Below are positions 21,441 through 61,538 of a DNA stretch of 64,000 nucleotides, piece by piece. Every line of letters begins with the position of its first letter. Position 1 is the first letter of the stretch. The notes under the pieces were generated by a model. The model worked only from the letters and a program-made list of their open reading frames with translations, had not been told where the DNA came from and did no database searches. Origin of the DNA: Escherichia phage vB_EcoM_NBG2; the sequence record NC_054925.1, one strand, 5' to 3'. The translations under genes and the position numbers were made by a program.

Positions 21441-21447
21441 TTTGTGT

Positions 21448-21501
21448 TCCTCATGTTATGTCAGTAAGTTTACTATAACACAACACGAGGGACTTGTAAA
21501 C
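21448..21501 (-). promoter_or_regulatory. early promoter with stem-loop (PeSL-like cassette), copy A
   Basis: Minus strand GTTTAC -35, 18-nt spacer, TATAGT; imperfect inverted repeat spanning the -10; 52 of 54 nt identical to 37403..37456. Confidence 0.65.
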
Positions 21502-28925: not shown

Positions 28926-29118
28926 TACTTATAATTTCAACATCAGCCCAATGACCATAGCAAGGAAGACGAAATTCAACTGGCCAGTTAGGGTCCTTTT
29001 CTAATATAATAGACTTAACTTGTGGTTCTTCATGTTCATCGGTATACGGACCTTTATACGTTACTTTATATGTGACCTTAATGTACTGAATTCCAAAAAT
29101 CTTATTAATTATATTCAT
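28912..29118 (-). CDS. hypothetical protein
   Basis: 68-aa ORF in the 30.x cluster. Confidence 0.5.
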   Translation of the reverse strand: MNIINKIFGIQYIKVTYKVTYKGPYTDEHEEPQVKSIILEKDPNWPVEFRLPCYGHWADVEIISIENV

Positions 29119-29312
29119 ACTAATTCCTTTAATCCATAGATAGGAGATAATTCATCACCCATACGAAGGTCTTCATTTCCATCTACCCAGGAAACAATAT
29201 AAGCCTCTTTTATTTGAACGTCTCTCCATTTAAATGCAGGCAAAACCTTAGAAATTAATCCAGGTATACCGACTCCCTTTAATTCAACAGTTTGACCCAA
29301 AAAGAATTTCAT
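29115..29312 (-). CDS. hypothetical protein
   Basis: 65-aa ORF, ATGA-coupled. Confidence 0.5.
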   Translation of the reverse strand: MKFFLGQTVELKGVGIPGLISKVLPAFKWRDVQIKEAYIVSWVDGNEDLRMGDELSPIYGLKELV

Positions 29313-29602
29313 TAGAACCTCATCTGAAATCCGTGCGATTTAACATTACCACCACCAATGTCAGAAATATTAATTTCACTCGCAATTGAAGGGTCAATGT
29401 CAATTTCACGATTGAGTTTAATGATTGCTAGAGTATCACGTCCATTTACAGTACGGAACTCTAAAGGACATACTACATTAACGTAGTTTTTAATCGATTC
29501 ACTGGTAGGCTGCAAATGAGCAGGAAGGTCTTTAGGCGCCTTAGAGAAAACCACTTCACAGAAATTTTTGCGGGTATCAAAATAAGTAGTCATAAACATA
29601 GT
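29312..29602 (-). CDS. hypothetical protein (start trimmed to ATG with Shine-Dalgarno)
   Basis: ORF track begins at TTG 29650; ATG at 29602 is preceded by GAGGA and leaves the GC hairpin in the intercistronic region. Confidence 0.5.
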   Translation of the reverse strand, partial: TMFMTTYFDTRKNFCEVVFSKAPKDLPAHLQPTSESIKNYVNVVCPLEFRTVNGRDTLAIIKLNREIDIDPSIASEINISDIGGGNVKSHGFQMRF

Positions 29603-29616
29603 ATTTTCCTCAGTAA

Positions 29617-29630
29617 GGGGCCGAAGCCCC
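29617..29630 (-). promoter_or_regulatory. intercistronic GGGGC-UUCG-GCCCC hairpin
   Basis: 14-nt hairpin with UUCG tetraloop on the minus transcript; identical sequence at 8191..8204. Confidence 0.5.
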
Positions 29631-29639
29631 TGTTTTATT

Positions 29640-30005
29640 TTAAATATCAAATTCGTTAAGAACTACATCAAAGATTGCTTCAAGATGCTCAGGTTTAGCT
29701 CTGTTACTCAGAATATGACGAATCCAAGTTTTAACCAGAAGCTTACGATTGACGCCATTCCAACAAGGATGAGTCCCTAAATCACGTTGACGAAAATCAT
29801 CATCCAGAGCGATTTTAAAAGAAGAACCTTCTTTCGTGATTGAAACCGTAATGCCATTTTCAAATCGCATATAAACGTAGTTAGGAGTCATATACTGTTC
29901 AATTTCGCATACTGATCCATTTTGATGTTTCCAAAGGCAAATAGTATCAATAGAACCTGCAATACCGTTAGAAACATATTTACGTTCAAAGTTAATGTAG
30001 TTCAT
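29640..30005 (-). CDS. hypothetical protein (30.7-like), start trimmed to ATG
   Basis: ORF track start is TTG at 30017; ATG at 30005 has GGAGAATAAA Shine-Dalgarno. Confidence 0.6.
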   Translation of the reverse strand: MNYINFERKYVSNGIAGSIDTICLWKHQNGSVCEIEQYMTPNYVYMRFENGITVSITKEGSSFKIALDDDFRQRDLGTHPCWNGVNRKLLVKTWIRHILSNRAKPEHLEAIFDVVLNEFDI

Positions 30006-30030
30006 TTTATTCTCCAAGATGTTTAATTGC

Positions 30031-30070
30031 GGTACAGGTATATAATATCATATCCTGTACCAAAGTAAAC
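30031..30070 (-). promoter_or_regulatory. early promoter with stem-loop (PeSL-like)
   Basis: Minus GTTTAC, 17 nt, TATTAT; 8-bp inverted repeat GGTACAGG/CCTGTACC flanking the -10. Confidence 0.6.
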
Positions 30071-30072
30071 AA

Positions 30073-30405
30073 TTATTTTACTAATTTCCAATGCTTCATG
30101 TCAAGTTTGCCAACTTTTTTCATCTTCTCAATTAAGCGTTCGGCACGCTGGCGAGCTGTAACATAATACCATTCACCCAATTCATTTTGTTCAATTTTTC
30201 CAACGATTACTGTATTCAATTCATAAATCCAACCAGTAAAGAAATTATGAACTTGAATTGTAAAGGTGAAATCTGTTCCCATACCTTCTGTTGTTTCTAC
30301 TTCAACAATATCACCTTCAACTGCCATTAAGAACCACATAGTTTCATCATATTTACCATTGAAGCATTTAGTTTTAACTGCAGCGTTCAGATTAATCGTT
30401 TTCAT
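30073..30405 (-). CDS. hypothetical protein (30.8-like)
   Basis: 110-aa ORF. Confidence 0.6.
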   Translation of the reverse strand: MKTINLNAAVKTKCFNGKYDETMWFLMAVEGDIVEVETTEGMGTDFTFTIQVHNFFTGWIYELNTVIVGKIEQNELGEWYYVTARQRAERLIEKMKKVGKLDMKHWKLVK

Positions 30406-30413
30406 TTTATTCT

Positions 30414-30462
30414 CCTTTGTTTGTGTAAGATAATACTATCACAAAGGAACCATACTGTAAAC
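30414..30462 (-). promoter_or_regulatory. early promoter with stem-loop (PeSL-like)
   Basis: Minus GTTTAC, 18 nt, TAGTAT; 7-bp inverted repeat CCTTTGT/ACAAAGG. Confidence 0.55.
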
Positions 30463-30480
30463 AACTTTGTGCAATCTTTG

Positions 30481-30510
30481 GAAAATAAAAAAGGACTCCC
30501 GAAGGAGTCC
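30481..30510 (-). terminator. rho-independent terminator after the 30.9-like ORF
   Basis: GGACUCC-UUCG-GGAGUCC hairpin followed by UUUUUUAUUUUC on the minus transcript. Confidence 0.8.
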
Positions 30511-30515
30511 TCAAC

Positions 30516-30692
30516 TTATGCTTTCTGCTTACCAAAACGAGAAGCATCATCTCGAAGAACCGCACGTGCTCGGCGCATGATCTTCTCAACAGTTTGATTG
30601 ATACGAGAGTTCGACCCACGCTTGTAACCAGCGCGTTTAGAATCACCAACTTTCTTTTCAACTGCTTTCTTTGCTTTAGCTTGTTTTGCCAT
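30516..30692 (-). CDS. small basic protein (30.9-like), start trimmed to ATG
   Basis: 58 aa MAKQAKAKKAVEKKVGDSKRAGYKRG...; ORF track N-terminal extension judged unlikely. Confidence 0.5.
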   Translation of the reverse strand: MAKQAKAKKAVEKKVGDSKRAGYKRGSNSRINQTVEKIMRRARAVLRDDASRFGKQKA

Positions 30693-30997
30693 TATAAATT
30701 CTCTTTTAAATGAAAATGCAGGACTTATTGGCATTGCCTGCGCAAGCCCTCAAGGGGAACATAGGTTTTGTATATTTACCGACAGGATAACCATAAACCT
30801 CGTCAACATACCTTATAGCTCTTATCTGTTGCACACCGTTAGCTTAAAGGTTCCGGGTTCGATTTCTCGAGGATAAGATATATACTGATGGATATATAGG
30901 CCTTGAGGCGTACTCCCGATTGGCCATCACCTCGGGGTAGCATGCACTTGCCGCTATAAGAATAACATTCAAGAGGTACACCATAAAACTGCCGGGG

Positions 30998-31028
30998 TCT
31001 TAAAACTATAATGATTCGCAAATCATTA
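30998..31028 (-). terminator. terminator-like hairpin downstream of rIII
   Basis: Perfect 8-bp stem UAAUGAUU-UGCG-AAUCAUUA followed by UAGUUUUAAG on the minus transcript, 60 nt after the rIII stop. Confidence 0.55.
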
Positions 31029-31089
31029 ATCAGACAGTTCGATGGCTCCTCGATTTTAGCTCACACTAAGGCAGTGAATCTCCAATAAA

Positions 31090-31338
31090 TTACTTCAGTG
31101 TTACCACAAAGTGACGAACTGCTTTTCGTGCGGCAGAAGCCAGAGGCTTAGCATATTTAAGTTCATCTTTTTCCTGGAGCTCAGCAGCTAATGCAGTTTG
31201 AGCAGGATTCAGATGTTTGAAATAACGCAGGATTTCAAGAGCTTCGGCTTCAACATCAATAGATGCGCCATAGTTTTCGTGACCATTATTCCATGCGTTT
31301 CGTTGCAGTTCAAGAGCGTGTTGTAATTGTTTAATCAT
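31090..31338 (-). CDS. rIII: RIII lysis-inhibition accessory protein
   Basis: 82 aa, position between the 30.x genes and gene 31, sequence recognised. Confidence 0.85.
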   Translation of the reverse strand: MIKQLQHALELQRNAWNNGHENYGASIDVEAEALEILRYFKHLNPAQTALAAELQEKDELKYAKPLASAARKAVRHFVVTLK

Positions 31339-31485
31339 TTAAAAATTCTCGTTAGAGATTAAAACTCGGTAGTCACGTTCTTCTGAATTTCATCTTCTTT
31401 CGACAGATCTCTCAGTTGTAGACTACCACGTAGAATTGTTCGGTTAACTTATTATTCCGACACCCAATTCATATTATTATTTATA

Positions 31486-31821
31486 TCACTTATAAAGACA
31501 CGGAATAGCTTTATAATGACATGTTACGAATTTTTGTTTAATTTCTTTTGGCTGCTTAAGACCCAGAGCTACAAAAGGATGCGGAACGTTTCGAATTTGA
31601 CCAACTGGAAGAGAAGTCAAATCACCAACTTCGCAGAAACCTTCAGGAACATCAGGACCAACAGAGTGAACTACACACAGTTCAGGAACTTCACCTTGAA
31701 CACGTTTACCGATAATAAGTCCTGATTCTGTAACTTCTTCATCACCGGCTTGCGCAGGTTCAGAAACTAAAATAACATATTCACCGACAGCACGAATTGG
31801 TAGCTGTTGTACTTCAGACAT
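31486..31821 (-). CDS. 31: co-chaperonin gp31 (GroES analogue)
   Basis: 111 aa; sequence recognised as T4 gp31. Confidence 0.95.
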
Positions 31822-31851
31822 CGTTTTTCCTTTTTGTTAACAGATGAATTA

Positions 31852-31876
31852 ATAATAACAAATAATTCTTAAAGCA
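31852..31876 (-). promoter_or_regulatory. MotA-dependent middle promoter for gene 31
   Basis: Minus strand MotA box AATGCTTTA, 12-nt spacer, TATTAT, about 30 nt upstream of the gene 31 ATG. Confidence 0.65.
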
Positions 31877-31877
31877 T

Positions 31878-32186
31878 TTATTTACCAATAAATTGAAGCA
31901 AATGCTCAACTTTCATACCATTAACGGAAATCAATTTGTCAATAGAAAAACCTCGCCATGCACCAAGCTCAACATCAAATACTGGAATCATATCAGTAGA
32001 TTCTTTCCGAGTAGATTCAGTCAATTTACCAGTTTGCATGGTTGGCATAAAGTCAGCATCACGAGTACCTTTCATAGTACGAATAGTACCGTCAGACTTT
32101 TCAAAAACCACGTTTGAAATACCCATAGACAATTTAGTTTTCAAAATTTCACGAATTGCTACTTTTTGTTCAGTCGTCAGTTTCAT
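31878..32186 (-). CDS. hypothetical protein (31.1-like)
   Basis: 102-aa ORF. Confidence 0.6.
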   Translation of the reverse strand: MKLTTEQKVAIREILKTKLSMGISNVVFEKSDGTIRTMKGTRDADFMPTMQTGKLTESTRKESTDMIPVFDVELGAWRGFSIDKLISVNGMKVEHLLQFIGK

Positions 32187-32423
32187 TTATTTACCTATCA
32201 CAGTTTTAATATGAGTTGTTCCACGTTCTTTAAGAGTGGAAAGCAATTTTTGGCATTTTTCTAAATCAGATTTCCAACTATACGGTCTATCAATACAAAC
32301 CCAGTTTGACTTATAATACTGCTTCCATTTAGAGAAAAAATACTTCTTATACTCTACAGCAAATGAAATGTTCTCGTTGGAATAAGAACTAATTGCTGTG
32401 AGTTGTACCAAACGAAATTTCAT
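32187..32423 (-). CDS. hypothetical protein (31.2-like)
   Basis: 78-aa ORF. Confidence 0.55.
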   Translation of the reverse strand: MKFRLVQLTAISSYSNENISFAVEYKKYFFSKWKQYYKSNWVCIDRPYSWKSDLEKCQKLLSTLKERGTTHIKTVIGK

Positions 32424-33004
32424 TATTCACCACAGAATTCGTTGATATTTTCCCAGTTTAACTTATTCAAGTTTTTCTTAGGAACATTGAACACTTCAAT
32501 ACCCGCATTTCGCAGAATATCATCCCAACCAGGTTTATTTTTATCGTATGTTTCGCAATAAACCAGCTTTTTAATTCCAGATTGAGCTATCGCTTTTGCA
32601 CAATCTGGACAAGGAGAAAGTGTTACATACATAGTAGCACCTTCAATTGAAGAACCATTTCGTGCAGCAAACAAAATTGCATTTAGTTCAGCATGAATTT
32701 CATTTTTAGACGACCATTCAGAATGAGCGCTGCGGTGTTCTTTCGCCAAAACAAAACGATCAGTTGAACCAAATGATACGCATTCAGGCTTATGACCTTG
32801 AATGATAGTATGTTTAGGCTTATTCAGCAACCAACCTTGCTCAGCAGCATAATCACAACAGTTCACACCACCTGCCGGAGAACCGTTATATCCAGTAGAA
32901 ATAATACGTCCATTCTTTTCAATTACTGCTCCTACCTTCCAGGAGCAACATTTTGATTCTTGTGATACTAAATATGCAATTTGAAGTACTGTACTCGCTT
33001 TCAT
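32423..33004 (-). CDS. cd: dCMP deaminase
   Basis: 193 aa; zinc-binding deaminase motifs HAELNAI and PCPDCAKAI. Confidence 0.95.
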   Translation of the reverse strand: MKASTVLQIAYLVSQESKCCSWKVGAVIEKNGRIISTGYNGSPAGGVNCCDYAAEQGWLLNKPKHTIIQGHKPECVSFGSTDRFVLAKEHRSAHSEWSSKNEIHAELNAILFAARNGSSIEGATMYVTLSPCPDCAKAIAQSGIKKLVYCETYDKNKPGWDDILRNAGIEVFNVPKKNLNKLNWENINEFCGE

Positions 33005-33339
33005 TTCATAATCACCAGATAAGCAGATTTAGCAGTTTCAACACGATAAATTTCGTGACGAAGTTTAGTTATACTTTTAATAACAGAACTAATTATATTC
33101 TGCCCGTCTTTAAAGCGGTTTTTCTTATCAATAAAAATTGCACCAGCCATCTTTTTGTGAAGCTCAACTGGATACTTCGTCACAATAATAGCATCATACA
33201 CAGAAGGATGAATACTGTTCACCAGAGTATCATTCATTAAAGTTATTCTAATGAACTGTGCTGTTTCAGAATCAAGCGCTCTATGATCGCCAGTATCATT
33301 TTCAAGACAATTATCAATTATATCAGTTAAATTCATCAT
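33001..33339 (-). CDS. hypothetical protein (cd.1-like)
   Basis: 112-aa ORF, ATGA-coupled. Confidence 0.55.
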   Translation of the reverse strand: MMNLTDIIDNCLENDTGDHRALDSETAQFIRITLMNDTLVNSIHPSVYDAIIVTKYPVELHKKMAGAIFIDKKNRFKDGQNIISSVIKSITKLRHEIYRVETAKSAYLVIMK

Positions 33340-33572
33340 AGTACGCCATACACCCTTTGTGCTTCAACTAATCCATCAAAATCCAGTTTAAGATGCGTTA
33401 TTTGGTCACCATCACCTGGATTCACAATTACTAATACTGAACGAGGAGTTTCGGTAATAACACGAACCGACGTTTCAGGAAATCGTTCAGAAACCTTATT
33501 TACCAATTCTTGAGCAAATAGTTTAACTTTTTCTTGGAATTCTTTAACAGTAATTGGTTTTTCGCTTAGCAT
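33336..33572 (-). CDS. hypothetical protein (cd.2-like)
   Basis: 78-aa ORF. Confidence 0.55.
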   Translation of the reverse strand: MLSEKPITVKEFQEKVKLFAQELVNKVSERFPETSVRVITETPRSVLVIVNPGDGDQITHLKLDFDGLVEAQRVYGVL

Positions 33573-34093
33573 GTTGATCCCAGCTCCTTACTTTCAACGT
33601 TTTTAACTAATTTGACAGAAACTAATTCAGCATCTTGAGTAATCATTACCGGACCTTCTTCATACTCTTCAAGATATTCTAGAGCTTTCTTTTTAGCTTC
33701 TTCCTTCGTATCAGTTTGAGCATAGATATAAAACATACAACCAGTAATACCTACTACTTTCCACTTAATTTCTTTATCAGCTTTAATTTCAAATTTACTG
33801 ACAGAATCATCTTTTTTAACTTCTTCGAAAAAAGAATATTCTAGCATATAAGCAATTGAAAATAACGGACTAACTTTATAGGATTCACCCATTACATCAA
33901 CAGCTTTATACCAGCAATCGTCAATTTCGCGTTTAATGCTAATAACATTTTTCGCAGGATCTATTTTTACTTTAAATGAATTTTCCCCAATAAACTGAGC
34001 AATTCGTTTATTAGCCCCACAAGTTTCATTAAAAATATCTTTATATCCAGCTTTAAAGCGATAAACCTTATCTTCTTCAAACCATTCGCTCAT
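33566..34093 (-). CDS. hypothetical protein (cd.3-like)
   Basis: 175-aa ORF downstream of an early-promoter cassette. Confidence 0.6.
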   Translation of the reverse strand: MSEWFEEDKVYRFKAGYKDIFNETCGANKRIAQFIGENSFKVKIDPAKNVISIKREIDDCWYKAVDVMGESYKVSPLFSIAYMLEYSFFEEVKKDDSVSKFEIKADKEIKWKVVGITGCMFYIYAQTDTKEEAKKKALEYLEEYEEGPVMITQDAELVSVKLVKNVESKELGSTC

Positions 34094-34114
34094 TTCAATT
34101 TCCTCATTTGTTTT

Positions 34115-34153
34115 GGTAGAGCTATAATATCACAACTCTACCGTAAAGTAAAC
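34115..34153 (-). promoter_or_regulatory. early promoter with stem-loop (PeSL-like)
   Basis: Minus GTTTAC, 18 nt, TATTAT; 7-bp inverted repeat GGTAGAG/CTCTACC flanking the -10. Confidence 0.6.
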
Positions 34154-34155
34154 TA

Positions 34156-34431
34156 TTAAATTGCTTTGAATTCTGATGTCTGTGATTCAAAGCGAATATC
34201 GCCTTTGATGACTAGCTCAGCATCAAGACCGAATACGACAATGATATGCGCGGAACCTGGATACAGCGTAATTGCAATAGAATCCACTTGGTCTGGAAGC
34301 AAAGCGTTCAATACATGAGTCACTTGAGCGTGGATTCGAAGTTCAGCTGCATTATCAAGCTTTTCAAACATATTATTAGCGATAATTTGGCTAAACACTA
34401 CTTCTACGATTTTAGAATAAGTCGGAAACAT
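34156..34431 (-). CDS. hypothetical protein (cd.4-like)
   Basis: 91-aa ORF. Confidence 0.55.
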   Translation of the reverse strand: MFPTYSKIVEVVFSQIIANNMFEKLDNAAELRIHAQVTHVLNALLPDQVDSIAITLYPGSAHIIVVFGLDAELVIKGDIRFESQTSEFKAI

Positions 34432-34433
34432 AT

Positions 34434-34634
34434 TTACCTCACATAATTTTCTTCAAGCCAATCAATAACATCCAAAGCGTTATCAAAAATTGAACCATCT
34501 ACTTTGTCTTCTGTTTCATAATCAAGAACATCTAAGCCTACTCTTCCATCAACAATAGGCCATAAACAAAATAGATATTTCTTTTCTTTTTCAATTTCAT
34601 CACAAAGTCGATAAATCTTTTCTATGTTATTCAT
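34434..34634 (-). CDS. hypothetical protein (cd.5-like)
   Basis: 66-aa ORF. Confidence 0.5.
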   Translation of the reverse strand: MNNIEKIYRLCDEIEKEKKYLFCLWPIVDGRVGLDVLDYETEDKVDGSIFDNALDVIDWLEENYVR

Positions 34635-34823
34635 AAGTTTTCCATGGTAAAGGCAGTTTAGTTTTCTTTACTGTTAGTTCAACATCAGGATTCTTTTCTC
34701 TTAATTTAAGGCATTCCTCCCAAGCCCTAATTTCACTAGTGAATATACAAAATTGCCCATTACTAGTACCAACTAAACCACTGTTTACAATAACAATAGC
34801 CCAAGTTTCATGATGCCAAGCCA

Positions 34824-34824
<1 letters not shown>
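34627..34824 (-). CDS. hypothetical protein
   Basis: 65-aa ORF, overlaps neighbours by a few nt. Confidence 0.5.
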
Positions 34825-36024
<1,200 letters not shown>

Positions 36025-36028
<4 letters not shown>

Positions 36029-36255
36029 TTATTTTTCTCAACCAATGATTGAATATAATCATGCAGGTCTTTAGATGCTTTGCCCCACTTATTTTGGTAT
36101 TCATTTTTGAGATTAGCACGTGATTGAGCTAATAAAACATCATTAGTTGGAGGTAAAGATTCTAATCGTTGAATCTGGCGTCCATAAATCATTGCAGCCA
36201 TCTCGGATTCATAAATCAATCCTTTGAGATGTTCAAATTGATGCCATGAAATCAT
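36025..36255 (-). CDS. hypothetical protein
   Basis: 76-aa ORF. Confidence 0.5.
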
Positions 36256-36551
36256 TTACACTTATCCTCTTTTAACTCTTGACGATAATAACATATCATA
36301 GTTTTTTGGTCATGTACATATCGTTTTACATCATTAAGCCAAATACGAAATTCCTGGGAATCTTCAAATGGCATACCGACCCAAGCTTTACCATCAATAA
36401 CTTTAACTTGCCAAGATAGTTTAGCTTCATCATATGACTTTATTTGTACAGGCCAATTAGGATGAACTGTTTCTTTCTTTACTTCTAGAGGCTTTGTCGA
36501 ACAACCAACTAGAAGACCAATAGATAATATTACTGCTGATAGTTTAATCAT
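36252..36551 (-). CDS. outer-membrane spanin lipoprotein (Rz1 equivalent, pseT.2-like)
   Basis: Signal peptide with lipobox LLVGC, 99 aa, directly downstream of a TM/coiled-coil partner. Confidence 0.7.
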   Translation of the reverse strand: MIKLSAVILSIGLLVGCSTKPLEVKKETVHPNWPVQIKSYDEAKLSWQVKVIDGKAWVGMPFEDSQEFRIWLNDVKRYVHDQKTMICYYRQELKEDKCK

Positions 36552-36901
36552 TTAGAAAGGTCCTGGATGTCTTCTGCGAACTTGTTGAAGGAGTTGTTGA
36601 TTTGTTTTTCAACCAATCCTGGCTTATGAGCCACCACATCCGCCTTCTTTGCATCTTTGCGCAGTTTTTCATTTTCACGCTCAATAGCAGCAATTGCCTC
36701 ACGATTTTTATTATTCATCGCATCAATATAATTATACTGAATTCGCAAATTATCTAATGCTAAAGCGTTTTCATTGGCTGTTTTTGTAATTTCAGTAACC
36801 GATGTTTCTAATCTTTCTACCTTATTTTTTAAAATAATAGATGTTCCGCCAAATGCTATTACAAGTAATAGCAATCCAGCTGTAAAATTACTTACATGCA
36901 T
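36548..36901 (-). CDS. inner-membrane spanin (Rz equivalent, pseT.3-like)
   Basis: N-terminal TM helix (FTAGLLLLVIAFGGTSIIL) followed by coiled-coil, 117 aa. Confidence 0.7.
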   Translation of the reverse strand: MHVSNFTAGLLLLVIAFGGTSIILKNKVERLETSVTEITKTANENALALDNLRIQYNYIDAMNNKNREAIAAIERENEKLRKDAKKADVVAHKPGLVEKQINNSFNKFAEDIQDLSK

Positions 36902-37398
36902 AAAGTTTTAATAACCTCTACAATATCGTCTTGAGAAAGACCGTTAATTAAAATATGATGTTCAGCTGGAGATTTAGAAATTTTAAAGCATGCCTCAACA
37001 TCTTCTGCCATATCCGATGCGCTACGATTTGGATTACTAATTCCAAGACGATGTTTTCCCGTCAAAGGATTAACGATGATGTAGCATTTACAGCTATTAA
37101 TGTGAACATTAGGTTGAGTCTGATTAATGAACACATCACAATCGTATTTCGCAAGCTGATTTTCTAAAAAGACTTTCATCTCCTCAACCGCATCAGGAAG
37201 CATATCACGGGCTTGCTCAAGACGACGATTTCGATATTCTTTAATGGTCGTTTTCCGTTTGACTTGCTTAGCTAAATCTTTCTTAAGATCGGTGATATAT
37301 CCAACTCGACGATTTCCTTTAAATACAGAAATCCCATCTGTAGTATCACCGTATGCTTCAACGACCATCTCAGTAGTAATAAGCTGCAAATCCATCAT
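36892..37398 (-). CDS. alc: Alc, host transcription shutoff protein
   Basis: 168 aa, position between the spanins and rnlA as in T4. Confidence 0.75.
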   Translation of the reverse strand: MMDLQLITTEMVVEAYGDTTDGISVFKGNRRVGYITDLKKDLAKQVKRKTTIKEYRNRRLEQARDMLPDAVEEMKVFLENQLAKYDCDVFINQTQPNVHINSCKCYIIVNPLTGKHRLGISNPNRSASDMAEDVEACFKISKSPAEHHILINGLSQDDIVEVIKTLCM

Positions 37399-37402
37399 AA
37401 AG

Positions 37403-37456
37403 TCCTCATGTTATGTCAGTAAGACTACTATAACACAACACGAGGGACTTGTAAAC
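37403..37456 (-). promoter_or_regulatory. early promoter with stem-loop (PeSL-like cassette), copy B
   Basis: Minus GTTTAC, 18 nt, TATAGT; 52 of 54 nt identical to copy A at 21448..21501. Confidence 0.65.
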
Positions 37457-37459
37457 AGC

Positions 37460-39047
<1,588 letters not shown>

Positions 39048-43438: not shown

Positions 43439-44454
43439 CATTATGTTCAGATAAGGTCGTTAATCTTACCCCGGAATTATATCCAGCTGCATGTCACCAT
43501 GCAGATCAGACTATATCTCCAACTTGTTAAAGCAAGTTGTCTATCGTTTCGAGTCACTTGACCCTACTCCCCAAAGGGATAGTCGTTAGGCATTTATGTA
43601 GAACCAATTCCATTTATCAGATTTTACACGATAAGTAACTAATCCAGACGAAATTTTAAAATGTCTAGCTGCATCTGCTGCACAATCAAAAATAACCCCA
43701 TCACATGAAATCTTTTTAATATTACTAGGCTTTTTACCTTTCATCTTTTCTGATATTTTAGATTTAGTTATGTCTGAATGCTTATGATTAAAGAATGAAT
43801 TATTTTCACCTGAACGATTTCTGCATTTACTACAAGTATAAGCAGAAGTTTGTATGCGAACACCGCACTTACAAAACTTATGGGTTTCTGGATTCCAACG
43901 CCCGTTTTTACTTCCGGGTTTACTGTAAAGAGCTTTCCGACCATCAGGTCCAAGTTTAAGCATCTTAGCTTTAACAGTTTCAGAACGTTTCTTAATAATT
44001 TCTTCTTTTAATGGATGCGTAGAACATGTATCACCAAACGTTGCATCAGCAATATTGTATCCATTAATTTTAGAATTAAGCTCTTTAATCCAAAAATTTT
44101 CTCGTTCAATAATCAAATCTTTCTCATATGGAATTTCTTCCAAAATAGAACATTCAAACACATTACCATGTTTGTTAAAAGACCTCTGAAGTTTTATAGA
44201 AGAATGGCATCCTTTTTCTAAATCTTTAAAATGCCTCTTCCATCTCTTTTCAAAATCTTTAGCACTTCCTACATATACTTTATTGTTTAAAGTATTTTTA
44301 ATCTGATAAATTCCGCTTTTCATAAATACCTCTTTAAATATAGAAGTATTTATTAAAGGGCAGTCCTACAATTTAGCACGGGATTGTCTACTAGAGAGGT
44401 TCCCCGTTTAGATAGATTACAAGTATAAGTCACCTTATACTCAGGCCTCAATTA
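43439..44454 (-). mobile_element. td group I intron (1016 nt) carrying the I-TevI gene
   Basis: 5' splice site after ...TTGGGT with in-frame TAA at intron start; intron begins UAAUUGAGGCCUGAGUAUAAGGUGACUUAUACUUG; ends ...CAUAAUG before exon 2. Confidence 0.93.
43586..44323 (-). CDS. I-TevI: intron-encoded GIY-YIG homing endonuclease I-TevI
   Basis: 245 aa; GIY-YIG module (GIYQIKNTLNNKVYVGSA) plus zinc finger and DNA-binding C-terminus. Confidence 0.95.
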   Translation of the reverse strand: MKSGIYQIKNTLNNKVYVGSAKDFEKRWKRHFKDLEKGCHSSIKLQRSFNKHGNVFECSILEEIPYEKDLIIERENFWIKELNSKINGYNIADATFGDTCSTHPLKEEIIKKRSETVKAKMLKLGPDGRKALYSKPGSKNGRWNPETHKFCKCGVRIQTSAYTCSKCRNRSGENNSFFNHKHSDITKSKISEKMKGKKPSNIKKISCDGVIFDCAADAARHFKISSGLVTYRVKSDKWNWFYINA

Positions 44455-46515: not shown

Positions 46516-46551
46516 AGGGTAATAGTATCACACTACTACCCTGTTGTAAAC
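46516..46551 (-). promoter_or_regulatory. early promoter with stem-loop (PeSL-like)
   Basis: Minus GTTTAC, 18 nt, TACTAT; 11-bp inverted repeat AGGGTAATAGT/ACTACTACCCT (one mismatch) with 5-nt loop. Confidence 0.6.
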
Positions 46552-46983: not shown

Positions 46984-47211
46984 TTATTGTTCAATCAATC
47001 CCATGTAAAATTCTGCGTCTTCAGAATCCATGCCATCACAATATTCATTAGCCATAAAGAGGGTGAGGTCTTCAAGAGGACCTTTAATAACGATTTGAAT
47101 ACTCCAAAACTTAGAATCTTGCACGCTTGTGATACTAAGTTCAGGATAACGATTACGAATAGTCTCTTCAATATATTCAAAATCAACGATGTCAATATCA
47201 ACTTTAGCCAT
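46984..47211 (-). CDS. hypothetical protein, start trimmed to ATG
   Basis: 75 aa from ATG with AAGAGGAAA Shine-Dalgarno; ORF-track TTG start at 47274 discarded. Confidence 0.5.
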
Positions 47212-47254
47212 ATTATTTTCCTCTTTAATCATCAGCAGTATTGCCGATAGTTGT

Positions 47255-47284
47255 ATAGTACCATGGAAGGACAAGGATGTAAAC
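47255..47284 (-). promoter_or_regulatory. early promoter (GTTTAC -35 type)
   Basis: Minus GTTTAC, 18 nt, TACTAT upstream of ORF 46984..47211. Confidence 0.5.
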
Positions 47285-47295
47285 GGCTTTGTGAA

Positions 47296-47334
47296 AAAAT
47301 TTTTGAAATAAAAAAGGGGACCTCTAGGGTCCCC
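47296..47334 (-). terminator. rho-independent terminator after gene 32
   Basis: GGGGACC-loop-GGUCCCC hairpin followed by UUUUUUAUUUC on the minus transcript. Confidence 0.8.
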
Positions 47335-50547: not shown

Positions 50548-50585
50548 AGATTTCTATTATATACCATCCAAATCTTAAAGTAAAC
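50548..50585 (-). promoter_or_regulatory. early promoter with stem-loop (PeSL-like) for rnh
   Basis: Minus GTTTAC, 18 nt, TATAAT; 6-bp inverted repeat AGATTT/AAATCT flanking the -10. Confidence 0.6.
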
Positions 50586-50630: not shown

Positions 50631-53600
50631 ATGGCCGAGATTAAAAGAAAGTTCAGAGCAGAAGATGGTCTGGACGCAGGTGGTGATAAAATAATCAACG
50701 TAGCTTTAGCTGATCGTACCGTAGGAACTGACGGTGTTAACGTTGATTACTTAATTCAAGAAAACACAGTTCAACAATATGATCCAACTCGTGGATATTT
50801 AAAAGATTTTGTAATCATTTATGATAACCGCTTTTGGGCTGCTATAAATGATATTCCAAAACCAGCAGGAGCTTTTAATAGCGTACGCTGGAGAGCATTA
50901 CGTACTGATGCAAACTGGACAACTGTTTCATCAGGACCTTATCAATTAAAATCGGGCGAATCAATTTCAGTTGATACTGCAGCTGGTAATGACATTACAT
51001 TTACTTTACCATCTTCTCCAATTGACGGTGATACTATCGTTCTCCAAGATATTGGAGGAAAACCTGGAGTTAATCAAGTTTTAATTACAGCTCCGGTACA
51101 AAGCATTGTAAATTTTAGAGGTCAGCAAGTACGTTCAGTACTAATGACTCATCCAAAATCACAGATAGTTTTAATTTTTAGTAATCGTCTGTGGCAAATG
51201 TATGTTGCTGATTATAGCAGAGAAGCTGCAATTGTAACACCGGCAAGTCTTTATCAGGCGCAATCTAACGATTTTATCGTGCGTAGATTTACTTCCGCTG
51301 CGCCGATTAATATTAAACTTCCAAGATTTGCTAATCATGGCGATATTATTAATTTCGTTGATTTAGATAAATTAAATCCTCTTTATCACACAATTGTTAC
51401 TACATATGATGAAACAACTTCAGTACAAGAAGTTGGAACTCATTCCATTGAAGGTCGTACATCGATTGACGGTTTCTTGATGTTTGATGATAATGAGAAA
51501 TTGTGGAGATTGTTTGACGGGGATAGTAAAGCACGTTTACGCATTATAACGACTAATTCTAATATTCGTCCAAATGAAGAAGTTATGGTATTTGGTGCGA
51601 ATAATGGAACAACCCAAACAATTGAACTTCAGCTTCCGACTGATATTTCTGTTGGTGATACTGTCAAAATTTCCATGAATTACATGAGAAAAGGACAAAC
51701 AGTTAAAATCAAAGCTGCCGGTGAAGATAAAATTGCTTCTTCAGTTCAATTGCTGCAATTCCCAAAACGCTCAGAATATCCGCCTGAAGCTGAATGGGTT
51801 ACAGTCCAAGAATTAGTTTTTAATGGTGAAACTAATTATGTTCCGGTTTTACAACTTGCTTATATAGAAGATTCTGACGGAAAATACTGGGTAGTACAGC
51901 AAAACGTTCCAACTGTAGAAAGAGTAGATTCTTTAAATGATTCTACTAGAGCAAGATTAGGCGTAATTGCTTTAGCTACACAAGCTCAAGCTAACGTCGA
52001 TTTAGAAAATTCTCCACAAAAAGAATTAGCAATTACTCCAGAAACGTTAGCTAATCGTACTGCTACAGAAACTCGTAGAGGTATCGCAAGAATAGCAACT
52101 ACTGCTCAAGTTAACCAGGATACTACATTCTCTTTTGCTGATGATATTATCATCACTCCTAAAAAGCTGAATGAAAGAACAGCTACTGAAACTCGCAGAG
52201 GTGTTGCTGAAATTGCTACACAGCAAGAAACTAATGCAGGAACCGATGATACTACAATCATCACTCCTAAAAAGCTTCAAGCTCGCCAAGGTTCTGAATC
52301 ATTATCTGGTATTGTAACTTTTGTATCTACTGCAGGAGCTACTCCAGCTTCTAGCCGTGAATTAAATGGTACGAATGTTTATAATAAAAACACTAATAAT
52401 TTAGTTGTTTCACCTAAAGCTTTGGATCAGTATAAAGCTACTCCAACACAACAAGGTGCGGTAATTTTAGCAGTTGAAAGTGAAGTAATTGCTGGACAAA
52501 GTCAGGAAGGATGGGCAAATGCGGTTGTAACGCCAGAAACGTTACATAAAAAGACATCAACTGATGGAAGAATTGGTTTAATTGAAATTGCTACGCAAAG
52601 TGAAGTTAATACAGGAACTGATTATACTCGTGCAGTCACTCCTAAAACTTTAAATGACCGTAGAGCAACTGAAAGTTTAAGCGGTATAGCTGAAATTGCT
52701 ACGCAGGTTGAATTCGACGCAGGCGTCGACGATACTCGTATCTCTACACCATTAAAAATTAAAACCAGATTTAATAGTACTGATCGTACTTCTGTTGTTG
52801 CTCTATCTGGATTAGTTGAATCAGGAACTCTCTGGGACCATTATACCCTTAATATTCTTGAAGCAAATGAGACACAGCGTGGTACACTTCGTGTAGCTAC
52901 ACAAGTCGAAGCTGCTGCAGGAACATTAGATAATGTTTTAATAACTCCTAAAAAGCTTTTAGGTACTAAATCTACTGAAGCACAAGAAGGTGTTATTAAA
53001 GTTGCAACTCAGTCTGAAACTGTGACTGGAACATCAGCAAATACTGCTGTATCTCCAAAAAATTTAAAATGGATTGTGCAGAGTGAACCTACCTGGGCAG
53101 CTACTACTGCGATAAGGGGATTTGTTAAAACTTCATCTGGTTCAATTACGTTCGTTGGTAATGATACAGTTGGTTCAACACAGTCATTAGAATTGTACGA
53201 GAAAAATAGTTATGCAGTATCGCCATACGAATTAAACCGTGTATTAGCAAATTATTTGCCGTTAAAAGCAAAAGCTGTAGATAGTAATTTACTGGATGGT
53301 CTAGATTCATCTCAGTTCATTCGTAGGGATATTGCACAAACGGTTAATGGTTCACTAACCTTAACCCAACAAACGAATCTGAGTGCCCCTCTTGTATCAT
53401 CTAGTACTGCTACGTTCGGTGGATCAGTTTCAGCAAATAGTACACTAACCATTTCTAATACTGGAACAGCAACTCGTCTGATTTTTGAGAAAGGACCTCA
53501 AACTGGAACGAACCCGGCTCAAACGATGACAGTCAAAGTGTGGGGAAATCAATTTAGTGGTGAATCAGACACAACGCGTTCTACTGTATTTGAAGTTAGT

Positions 53601-61100: not shown

Positions 61101-61373
61101 TTATTTGTTCGTATACATCTCTAGATATCGATATACACTCTCAAAACCCTCGTTGAATTCGTCGATGAGGGTTTTCTTATCTTCTTGAGTTAATTCAGAA
61201 ACAATTTTACGGAATGAATTCTGATTTAACTTTCTACCTTCATGCGTTACTCCAATCTCATTCAGAAATGCAATAAAATTAGCACGATTTTCAACAATAT
61301 CTTCTCTGGAAAATTTAATCAAAATAGACGCAACAGTAATAATTTCACGAACTGTATCAATGTTTTTATTCAT
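61101..61373 (-). CDS. asiA: anti-sigma70 factor AsiA
   Basis: 90 aa; sequence recognised (MNKNIDTVREIITVASILIKFSREDIVENRANFIAF...). Confidence 0.95.
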   Translation of the reverse strand: MNKNIDTVREIITVASILIKFSREDIVENRANFIAFLNEIGVTHEGRKLNQNSFRKIVSELTQEDKKTLIDEFNEGFESVYRYLEMYTNK

Positions 61374-61382
61374 TAACTATAC

Positions 61383-61538
61383 CACTCAATTAGTTGACTT
61401 TGTTATAATATCATCAGACACTTGATTTGTAAACTGGTCTGTGTTATTTTCTTCAAAAATTTTTTCTACGAATTCCTTGAACGACTCGCGTTCCTGAGCT
61501 ACATTATGCTCGATTACCTTTTCAAGATTATGACTCAT
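61383..61538 (-). CDS. small ORF (51 aa), ATGA-coupled to arn
   Basis: ATG overlaps the arn stop (ATGA); below ORF-track size cutoff. Confidence 0.4.

Follow-up and report, generated by a model that had tools for sequence, protein, structure and literature searches.

Why should an early promoter of a T4-like phage enclose its −10 element in an inverted repeat? The question is posed by positions 30031–30070 of a stretch of 64,000 nucleotides (nt) from Escherichia phage vB_EcoM_NBG2 (record NC_054925.1), called the window in what follows. There, on the minus strand, the promoter upstream of gene 30.7 holds one arm of a repeat in the spacer between its −35 and −10 elements and the other just past the −10. 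An earlier note on this DNA had listed several sites of this kind and had suggested an operator, a DNA structural switch or a recombination hot spot. Here, these suggestions are weighed against pairing in RNA. It will be seen that the inverted repeats are a real, non-random and selected feature, and that the pairing is promoter-specific, strand-asymmetric, kept across genera and correlated with an upstream open reading frame (ORF) that abuts the promoter. On balance we consider it probable that the hairpin is an element of the sense transcript, part of a cassette of the promoter-early stem-loop (PeSL) type, which forms in read-through RNA only and insulates stacked early units; an effect on termination, RNA stability or translation is what we infer from this arrangement.

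Inverted repeats at the early promoters

Judged by its sequence, the window is a Tequatrovirus (T4-like) early region. Positions 29000–35000 match ~1000 T4-like phage genomes, with many Tequatrovirus isolates at 96–97% identity, and 29600–30700 is 100% identical to Escherichia phage vB_EcoM_DalCa. The minus strand carries 30.x, rIII, 31, cd, pseT, alc, rnlA and denA in T4-like order, continued by nrdB/A, td, frd, 32, 59, 33 and rnh, and gene 34 starts at 50631 on the plus strand. Since genes 30 to 34 are thus arranged as in T4, the sites discussed below can be taken as orthologous to T4 early promoters.

Nine exact GTTTAC-N17/18-TAnnnT sites are present on the minus strand of the window (61434, 50585, 47284, 46551, 37456, 34153, 30462, 30070 and 21501, the numbers by which they are called here; Table 1), and the pattern GTTTAC-N16-19-TANNAT has 8 matches compared with 1.2 expected. 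They are strong sigma-70-like early promoters with an A/T-rich upstream region. Every minus-strand site listed in the earlier note is indeed found where it was placed. Its description has to be amended at two points: the TG said to precede each −10 is missing at 50585, where the spacer is 18 nt and there is no TG at −15/−14, and the second arm, said to lie at or just past the −10, is 12–20 nt farther downstream at 30462, 37456 and 21501, on the Shine-Dalgarno (SD) sequence. A stem-loop is predicted at five of the six sites that were folded, with z between −2.7 and −6.45. The sixth, 50585, is at chance level, as 96 of 200 shuffles fold equally well.

Two forms of hairpin can be distinguished in the window. 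In the tight form (30070, 34153 and 46551) the 3′ arm comes directly after the −10 and the SD is left free, so that no SD masking is predicted; in the other form the SD is itself part of the 3′ arm. The cassettes are located between an upstream stop codon and a downstream SD or start codon. At 30070, 34153, 46551, 37456 and 21501, the distance between the end of the stop codon and the −35 is −1 to 3 nt, and SD and ATG are found within 19–37 nt after the predicted +1.

Table 1. Early promoters, their hairpin arms and nearby terminators in the window. Minimum free energy (MFE) of the RNA in kcal/mol; z relative to dinucleotide shuffles.
Feature	Coordinates	Strand	−35	−10	5′ arm	3′ arm	Folding	Remarks
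Early promoter cassette upstream of gene 30.7 (30070)	30031..30070	-	GTTTAC 30070-30065	TATTAT 30047-30042	GGTACAGG 30061-30054	CCTGTACC 30038-30031	MFE −16.1, z −5.6	30.8 stop codon ends 2 nt before −35
Early promoter cassette between cd.3 and next ORF (34153)	34115..34153	-	34153-34148	TATTAT 34129-34124	GGTAGAG; 12 bp counting G·U pairs, 34142-34131	CTCTACC; 12 bp counting G·U pairs, 34126-34115	z −6.45	ortholog of T4 Pe133295
Early promoter cassette upstream of frd.1 (46551)	46516..46551	-	46551-46546	TACTAT 46527-46522	AGGGTA; 12 bp with G·U pairs, AGGGTAGTAGTG 46542-46531	TACCCT; 12 bp with G·U pairs, TACTATTACCCT 46527-46516	z −3.7	upstream stop codon TAG overlaps −35
Early promoter cassette upstream of gene 30.8 (30462)	30413..30462	-	30462-30457	TAGTAT 30438-30433	TCCTTTGT 30448-30441 (anti-SD)	ACAAAGGA 30420-30413 (overlaps SD)	z −2.7	ATG 30405
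Early promoter cassette between rnlA and alc (37456)	37400..37456	-	37456-37451	TATAGT 37432-37427	37450-37430	37414-37400, includes alc SD (GAGGA)	MFE −23.9, z −5.05	ATG 37398
Early promoter cassette upstream of alt.-3 homologue (21501)	21446..21501	-	21501-21496	TATAGT 21477-21472	21490-21475	21459-21449, includes SD (GAGG)		ATG 21440
Early promoter upstream of rnh (50585)	50548..50585	-			AGATTT 50575-50570	AAATCT 50553-50548	z +0.05	weak A/T-rich 6-bp repeat
Early promoter upstream of frd.3 (47284)	47211..47284	-						exact consensus; no repeat around −10
Early promoter (61434)	61373..61434	-					MFE −5.2	exact consensus; internal negative example, no significant hairpin
Intrinsic terminator, loop TTCG, T-tract	30493..30510	-			GGACTCC	GGAGTCC		28 nt upstream of 30462 promoter
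Intrinsic terminator, loop CTAGA, T-tract	47316..47334	-			GGGGACC	GGTCCCC		downstream of gene 32, 31 nt upstream of 47284 promoter

A scan of random AT-rich hexamers had been named in the earlier note as the observation that could overturn its claim of non-random repeats. When the same geometry is applied to 2266 other −10-like hexamers of the window, 10% of them have a perfect stem of at least 6 base pairs (bp) and 2.7% one of at least 7 bp. The corresponding numbers for the promoters are 5/9 (binomial p ~9e-4) and 3/9 (p ~1.5e-3). Repeats are thus more frequent at promoters than at controls, and the claim stands.

Another control consists of chimeras, in which the 5′ half of one promoter is joined to the 3′ half of another, such that base composition and consensus features are kept. 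It was applied to the 31 exact GTTTAC-N17/18-TGnTAnnnT sites on the early strand of the whole T4 genome, of which 12 have a stem of at least 7 bp, compared with 4.2% of the chimeras (binomial p 2e-9; 0/2000 permutations). The mean RNA MFE is −13.4 kcal/mol for the native T4 sites and −8.9 for their chimeras (0/5000 permutations), and in the window the two values are −15.75 and −9.5. The early regions of five other T4-like phages, VR5 (Dhakavirus), VR25 (Gaprivervirus), NHEP10, ST2 and Merlin (Moonvirus), give a pooled mean of −12.0 for native promoters and −8.7 for chimeras (0/5000 permutations). Native promoters hence beat chimeras, which means that each promoter has a complementarity of its own, which the consensus does not bring about. 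A by-product of the consensus, for instance a recurrent GGTA...TACC, was considered as a candidate and is rejected by the mismatched halves.

Sense-strand pairing, transcription start and upstream context

To which molecule, then, does the pairing belong? Allowing G·U pairs lengthens the stems more than allowing A·C pairs does, by 1.45 bp in native promoters and by 0.27 bp in chimeras (0/5000 permutations); an A·C pair is a G·T mismatch viewed from the opposite strand. Folds of the sense strand are also more stable than those of the antisense strand, to a degree that exceeds the effect of composition, and the arm sequences are different at every site. The asymmetry and the diversity of the arms together indicate that the pairing belongs to the sense strand as a single strand, of which RNA is the simplest reading.

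The position of the transcription start is decisive for which RNA can carry the hairpin. In the T4 record the early promoter of cd.3/cd.2 is named Pe133295; counted from the −10 hexamer, this position is the 7th nt downstream. The same rule places the predicted +1 in the window at ~34117 for 34153 and at ~30035 for 30070, in both cases within the 3′ arm. The 5′ arm, on the other hand, is always upstream of the −10. With the +1 inside or beyond the 3′ arm, the promoter's own transcript cannot form the hairpin, and only RNA coming from upstream can. This is the central point, and the earlier note missed it: the start is inside the 3′ arm, and the hairpin exists only in read-through RNA.

The upstream context of the promoters points in the same direction. 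T4 promoters were classified as abutting when the −35 is at most 30 nt (usually at most 3 nt) from the stop of a same-strand upstream ORF, with no canonical terminator. The mean hairpin energy is −16.1 kcal/mol for the abutting promoters (n=18), −8.5 for those that follow a canonical hairpin-plus-T-tract terminator (n=6) and −9.0 for those without a close upstream ORF (n=9), the last value being equal to the chimera baseline; abutting promoters differ from the others with p=0.001 (Mann-Whitney). The five window promoters that abut a stop codon, 46551, 37456, 34153, 30070 and 21501, have a mean of −18.9, while 30462 and 47284 come after canonical terminators, and at 61434 the closest upstream ORF stop is 100 nt away. 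The promoter at 50585 is the first of a leftward unit, divergent from the late gene 34, and has no same-strand upstream ORF. No read-through is expected there, and its chance-level repeat thus fits a hairpin that serves the incoming transcript.

The two canonical terminators are easily told apart from the embedded hairpins. The one at 30493–30510 has a UUCG tetraloop in the RNA and is annotated as a terminator in phage DalCa. A terminator scan of 29000–38000 called only 30512–30491 near the cassettes, and no call coincides with a promoter-embedded hairpin, the tails of which are A-rich. We therefore reject intrinsic terminators as a description of the embedded stems, no T-tract being found after them; the remark in the earlier note that no U-tract follows the repeats holds at all hairpins. 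As a separate observation, the T-tracts of the terminators at 30493–30510 and 47316–47334 overlap the A/T-rich upstream region of the next promoter.

Conservation of the stems and the Shine-Dalgarno subset

Ortholog loci were sought with a protein scan of IMG/VR (9 loci) and a DNA-pattern scan (13 loci). These were mostly redundant, and GenBank phage records were used instead. For the promoter downstream of cd.3 (34153 in the window), eight distinct sequences from three lineages can be aligned without gaps through the hairpin. In this alignment, 95.8% of the cells of the 12-pair hairpin are paired, compared with 33–69% for slid controls. Three pairs have changed on both sides (A-U to G-C, G-C to A-U, and U·G/C-G/U-A), the remaining variation goes via G·U pairs, and 0/500 shuffles match the observed values. 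We regard this covariation as supportive rather than decisive, considering that the independent events are few and that the structure was derived from one of the aligned sequences.

More telling, as far as sequence comparison goes, are the orthologous promoters of frd.1, 30.7 and alc in more distant phages, where the stem is kept and its sequence is unrelated. At frd.1, the arms are AGGGTAGTAGTG / TACTATTACCCT in the window and T4, GATAGGG(T/C)TA / TAGCCCTATC in NHEP10 and ST2, AGGCTAT / ATAGCCT in VR5 and GGTGTAAGAT / ATCTTACACC in Merlin; VR25, like VR5, keeps a stem that is unlike that of the window. At 30.7, the window and T4 have GGTACAGG / CCTGTACC and Merlin has CTCCGTTGTATGT / ACATACAACGGAG. 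At alc, AAGTCC(C)TCGTG.. / ..CATGAGGACTT in the window and T4 corresponds to TCTCCTCATG / CATGAGGAGA in VR5 and TCTCCATTTGGTTG / CAACCAAATGGAGA in Merlin, and the stems of the latter two are anti-SD stems of different sequence. The 30070 stem itself is conserved in Tequatrovirus, Dhakavirus and Gaprivervirus, with diverging loop and leader; its arms show only C-to-U changes, which give G·U pairs, in two lineages.

A third form of hairpin, absent from the sites of the window, is present in T4 and its relatives. It lies wholly within the spacer (CCAC-N6-GTGG), with the TGn extended −10 motif as part of its 3′ arm, and it covaries among phages (GCAC/GTGC, ACACC/GGTGT, CACAT/ATGTG). Examples are found at T4 2458, 50973 and 167086 and, among the collected loci (L numbers), at L016 11753, in L017, at L018 27906, 29089 and 13937, and in L033.

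Among the hairpins whose 3′ arm contains the SD, the SD of 30462 is predicted to be unpaired with a probability of 0.94 in the promoter's own transcript and 0.01 in read-through RNA. For 37456 the values are 0.72 and 0.01. The prediction differs at 21501, where the SD is base-paired in the own transcript (0.03) as well as in read-through RNA (0.0), and at 47284, which has no repeat around the −10, the values are 0.97 and 0.05; no SD masking is predicted at 50585. T4 early spacers contain 16 anti-SD tetramers, compared with 3.6 expected, and strongly masked SD sites number 12 in T4 against ~7 by chance (p 0.014, from the chimera control and for counts only). As a function common to all sites, SD masking is rejected: it is predicted in a subset only, and the mean masking equals that of the chimeras.

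The cassettes at 37456 and 21501 are 16 kb apart and near-identical over ~60 nt, with a hairpin longer than those of the other sites, yet they drive alc and the alt.-3 homologue, respectively. In L031, the second copy has the 5′ arm GTTCCTTATGTT, which now fits that gene's own SD context AACATGAGGAAC; the change puts GTTCC with GGAAC in place of AAGTCC with GGACTT.

Known cassettes, proposed mechanism and alternatives

The architecture described above is a rediscovery, in another genus of the same subfamily, of the PeSL cassettes published for T4-type phages (Arbiol et al. 2010, PMC2839356; Comeau et al. 2014, PMC4122927). According to these papers, PeSLs occur in many repeats in plastic early regions, with gene insertions and deletions adjoining the cassettes. 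In phi1/RB49 they lie between the upstream stop codon and the downstream SD/ATG, with the stem-loop mostly between −35 and −10 or overlapping the −10, and the published stems are drawn with G·T pairs (PMC2839356). All of this is shared with the present sites. The window has nine copies and T4 has 31, and comparison with T4, Dhakavirus and Gaprivervirus shows ORF insertions and deletions and swapped cassettes right next to 34153 and 46551. The differences are that RB49 and phi1 combine G-run/C-run stems with TTGACA promoters, whereas varied stems and GTTTAC promoters are found here. One phi1 stem-loop matched rrnB T1 in the degree to which it lowered a downstream lacZ reporter (PMC2839356). The 2014 work extended PeSLs to PST/T4 with the promoter consensus TTTACW-N17-TAYWAT (PMC4122927); the stem-loops that its T4/PST legend places 'just upstream of the promoter' correspond to the canonical terminators at 30493–30510 and 47316–47334. 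Strand asymmetry, dependence on an abutting ORF and an anti-SD subset do not appear in the sections of PMC2839356 and PMC4122927 on which we draw, and reviews of T4 early promoters mention 'additional regions of consensus' and no inverted repeat. The strand asymmetry, the covariation and the context dependence thus add sequence-level support to the PeSL concept within the T4 genus.

Two other known systems are related. The T4 genes e, soc, 49 and I-TevI have start-sequestering hairpins with a promoter inside (reviewed in PMC3014915). There, long transcripts have a base-paired SD, and the RNA from the internal promoter, which has no 5′ arm, is translated; 30462, 37456 and 21501 have a matching geometry. 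However, the promoters in those genes are late ones (gp55, TATAAATA) that delay expression, while the internal promoters here are sigma-70 early promoters. Both RNAs are early in the present case, which would make for insulation of neighbouring early units and not for a temporal switch. In addition, 30070, 34153 and 46551 do not involve the SD. Intrinsic terminators, including those of the T4 UUCG type, likewise end a cistron with a stable RNA hairpin that contains G+C, but here the stem lacks a U-tract, the loops are larger and the −10 element is inside the hairpin.

The mechanism that we propose is as follows. The spacer is free to encode something else, because RNA polymerase hardly reads its sequence, and it holds the 5′ arm, with the 3′ arm at or after the −10. 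Transcripts begun at the cassette would lack the 5′ arm, and the hairpin would mark read-through RNA and insulate it between stacked units. The tight hairpins, directly after the stop codon, would replace a separate terminator hairpin and could attenuate or end the upstream transcript, or protect its 3′ end. At the SD-type sites, the spacer would carry an anti-SD, with the consequence that read-through RNA would be poorly translated and the gene expressed mainly from its own promoter. The cassettes show how a very compact phage genome, by reusing the promoter spacer, accommodates a promoter and an RNA hairpin together with the stop codon before them and the ribosome-binding site after them in ~65 nt.

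It is important to point out that several observations weigh against the read-through hairpin. A hairpin is missing from about half of the consensus promoters. The G·T tolerance is also compatible with a hairpin in single-stranded DNA of the sense strand, and the 30070 stem is conserved and not covarying, which makes conservation for another reason possible at that site. Classical intrinsic termination is not to be expected from hairpins without a U-tract. The mean SD masking in T4 does not differ between native promoters (0.326) and chimeras (0.331), since any anti-SD spacer masks any SD. Finally, 3′-end, 5′-end or structure-probing data for the sites were found neither for T4 nor for this phage, and a literature search for mapped transcript ends in T4 gave nothing usable.

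If insulation is true, it would explain why many T4 early genes follow their own promoter despite long read-through transcripts. Annotation pipelines would then need to recognise terminator-like elements without a U-tract, and the cassettes could serve as compact promoter/insulator units in phage engineering. A broader proposal, which we put forward tentatively as a minority view, is that T4-type early-promoter spacers systematically encode RNA elements for read-through transcripts, including anti-SDs, by which each early gene would be translated for the most part from transcripts of its own promoter and the stacked units would be kept apart, with stems continually re-invented across several genera of T4-like phages. 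This would amount to a general rule that contributes to the distinction between immediate-early and delayed-early expression.

Among the alternatives, the one that survives best is that the tight hairpins act post-transcriptionally on the upstream message and not on transcription, either as a barrier to 3′-to-5′ exonucleases after RNA cleavage or by burying A/U-rich promoter sequence from RNase E. The hairpins are immediately 3′ of the upstream stop codon, have no U-tract and are stable (−15 to −24 kcal/mol), and it is established that T4 mRNA is degraded by RNase E and that RNA structure gives protection (PMC3014915). We nevertheless judge it unlikely as a replacement for action on transcription: the reduction of the downstream reporter by the phi1 stem-loop (PMC2839356) fits attenuation at least as well, and the SD-masking subset is left unexplained.

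Less likely still, and to be given a low probability, is that the repeat is kept mainly as a DNA recombination signal, with cassettes flanking small genes recombining and so shuffling the plastic regions; the stem-loop might in addition be the target of a recombination protein. PeSL-to-PeSL recombination and mini-circles with the crossover in the loop have been shown in RB49/phi1 (PMC2839356). Several gene arrangements also agree with such shuffling. A 175-aa ORF (33566–34093, minus strand) comes right after the 34153 promoter in the window, where T4 has cd.2, and a 22-aa ORF after the frd.1 promoter of T4 (146004–146143) is missing from the window. L024 contains a half-promoter/half-cassette remnant, and the cd.3 site is occupied by another type of promoter in some genomes of Dhakavirus and Gaprivervirus. 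In Dhakavirus (L004–L008), the 30.8 and 30.7 cassettes have an identical ~40-nt leader (GTACCAAATAATACGAAAACAAAC...GGAGAATAAAATGAA), which suggests gene conversion or recombination between adjacent cassettes. The hot spot of the earlier note thus agrees with the published PeSL work and the adjacent insertions and deletions. It is, however, more likely to be a consequence of repeated cassettes than the reason for the pairing. Homologous exchange needs common sequence, yet the stems are the part that differs; the G·U/A·C asymmetry and the compensatory changes indicate that what is selected is pairing within the sense strand as a single strand; and the dependence on an abutting ORF is not predicted. 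Insertions, deletions and cassette swaps fit PeSL shuffling but leave the conservation of the pairing unexplained.

An operator or a DNA structural switch, the other suggestions of the earlier note, are not supported, and a DNA-level operator or cruciform is highly improbable. The repeat does span the −10, a position at which RNA polymerase would be blocked by an extruded structure or a bound protein, and what shuts off the early promoters is not fully settled (PMC2988021). Yet neither the shared recognition sequence of an operator nor the two-strand Watson-Crick symmetry of a cruciform is found. No arm sequence is common to the sites, the stem changes freely at orthologous promoters, and about half of equally good promoters are without any repeat. 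The loops of 8–22 nt disfavour extrusion, and the toleration of G·T but not of A·C on the sense strand means that the complementary strand pairs poorly. Since a palindrome or cruciform should be strand-symmetric, this asymmetry speaks against any double-stranded DNA element, and we reject both forms.

Chance matches, or passive inheritance with a duplicated promoter family, deserve next to no credence for the set as a whole even though many T4 early promoters are paralogous copies (37456 and 21501, for example), given that the control hexamers and mismatched halves reject chance and that inheritance is ruled out by the compensatory changes and by orthologous sites with non-homologous stems; for the chance-level repeat at 50585 alone, this remains the best reading.

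Some further observations concern the surroundings of the sites. A near-perfect sigma-70 consensus (TTGACA, 18 nt, TAAAAT; 11/12 matches) is located at 30075–30104 on the minus strand, within the 3′ end of 30.8 and ~34 nt upstream of the 30070 promoter. An Rfam search of the whole window matched no family, group I intron included. The td region has a 245-aa ORF, the size of I-TevI, at 43586–44323 on the minus strand; td is uninterrupted in the DalCa record, and the window is hence mosaic relative to DalCa. The ST2 record (OM982647.1, L032) is assigned by its taxonomy to Guernseyvirinae; Kagunavirus, yet a 41-kb stretch of it is collinear with the T4 early region, and the record appears to be misclassified.

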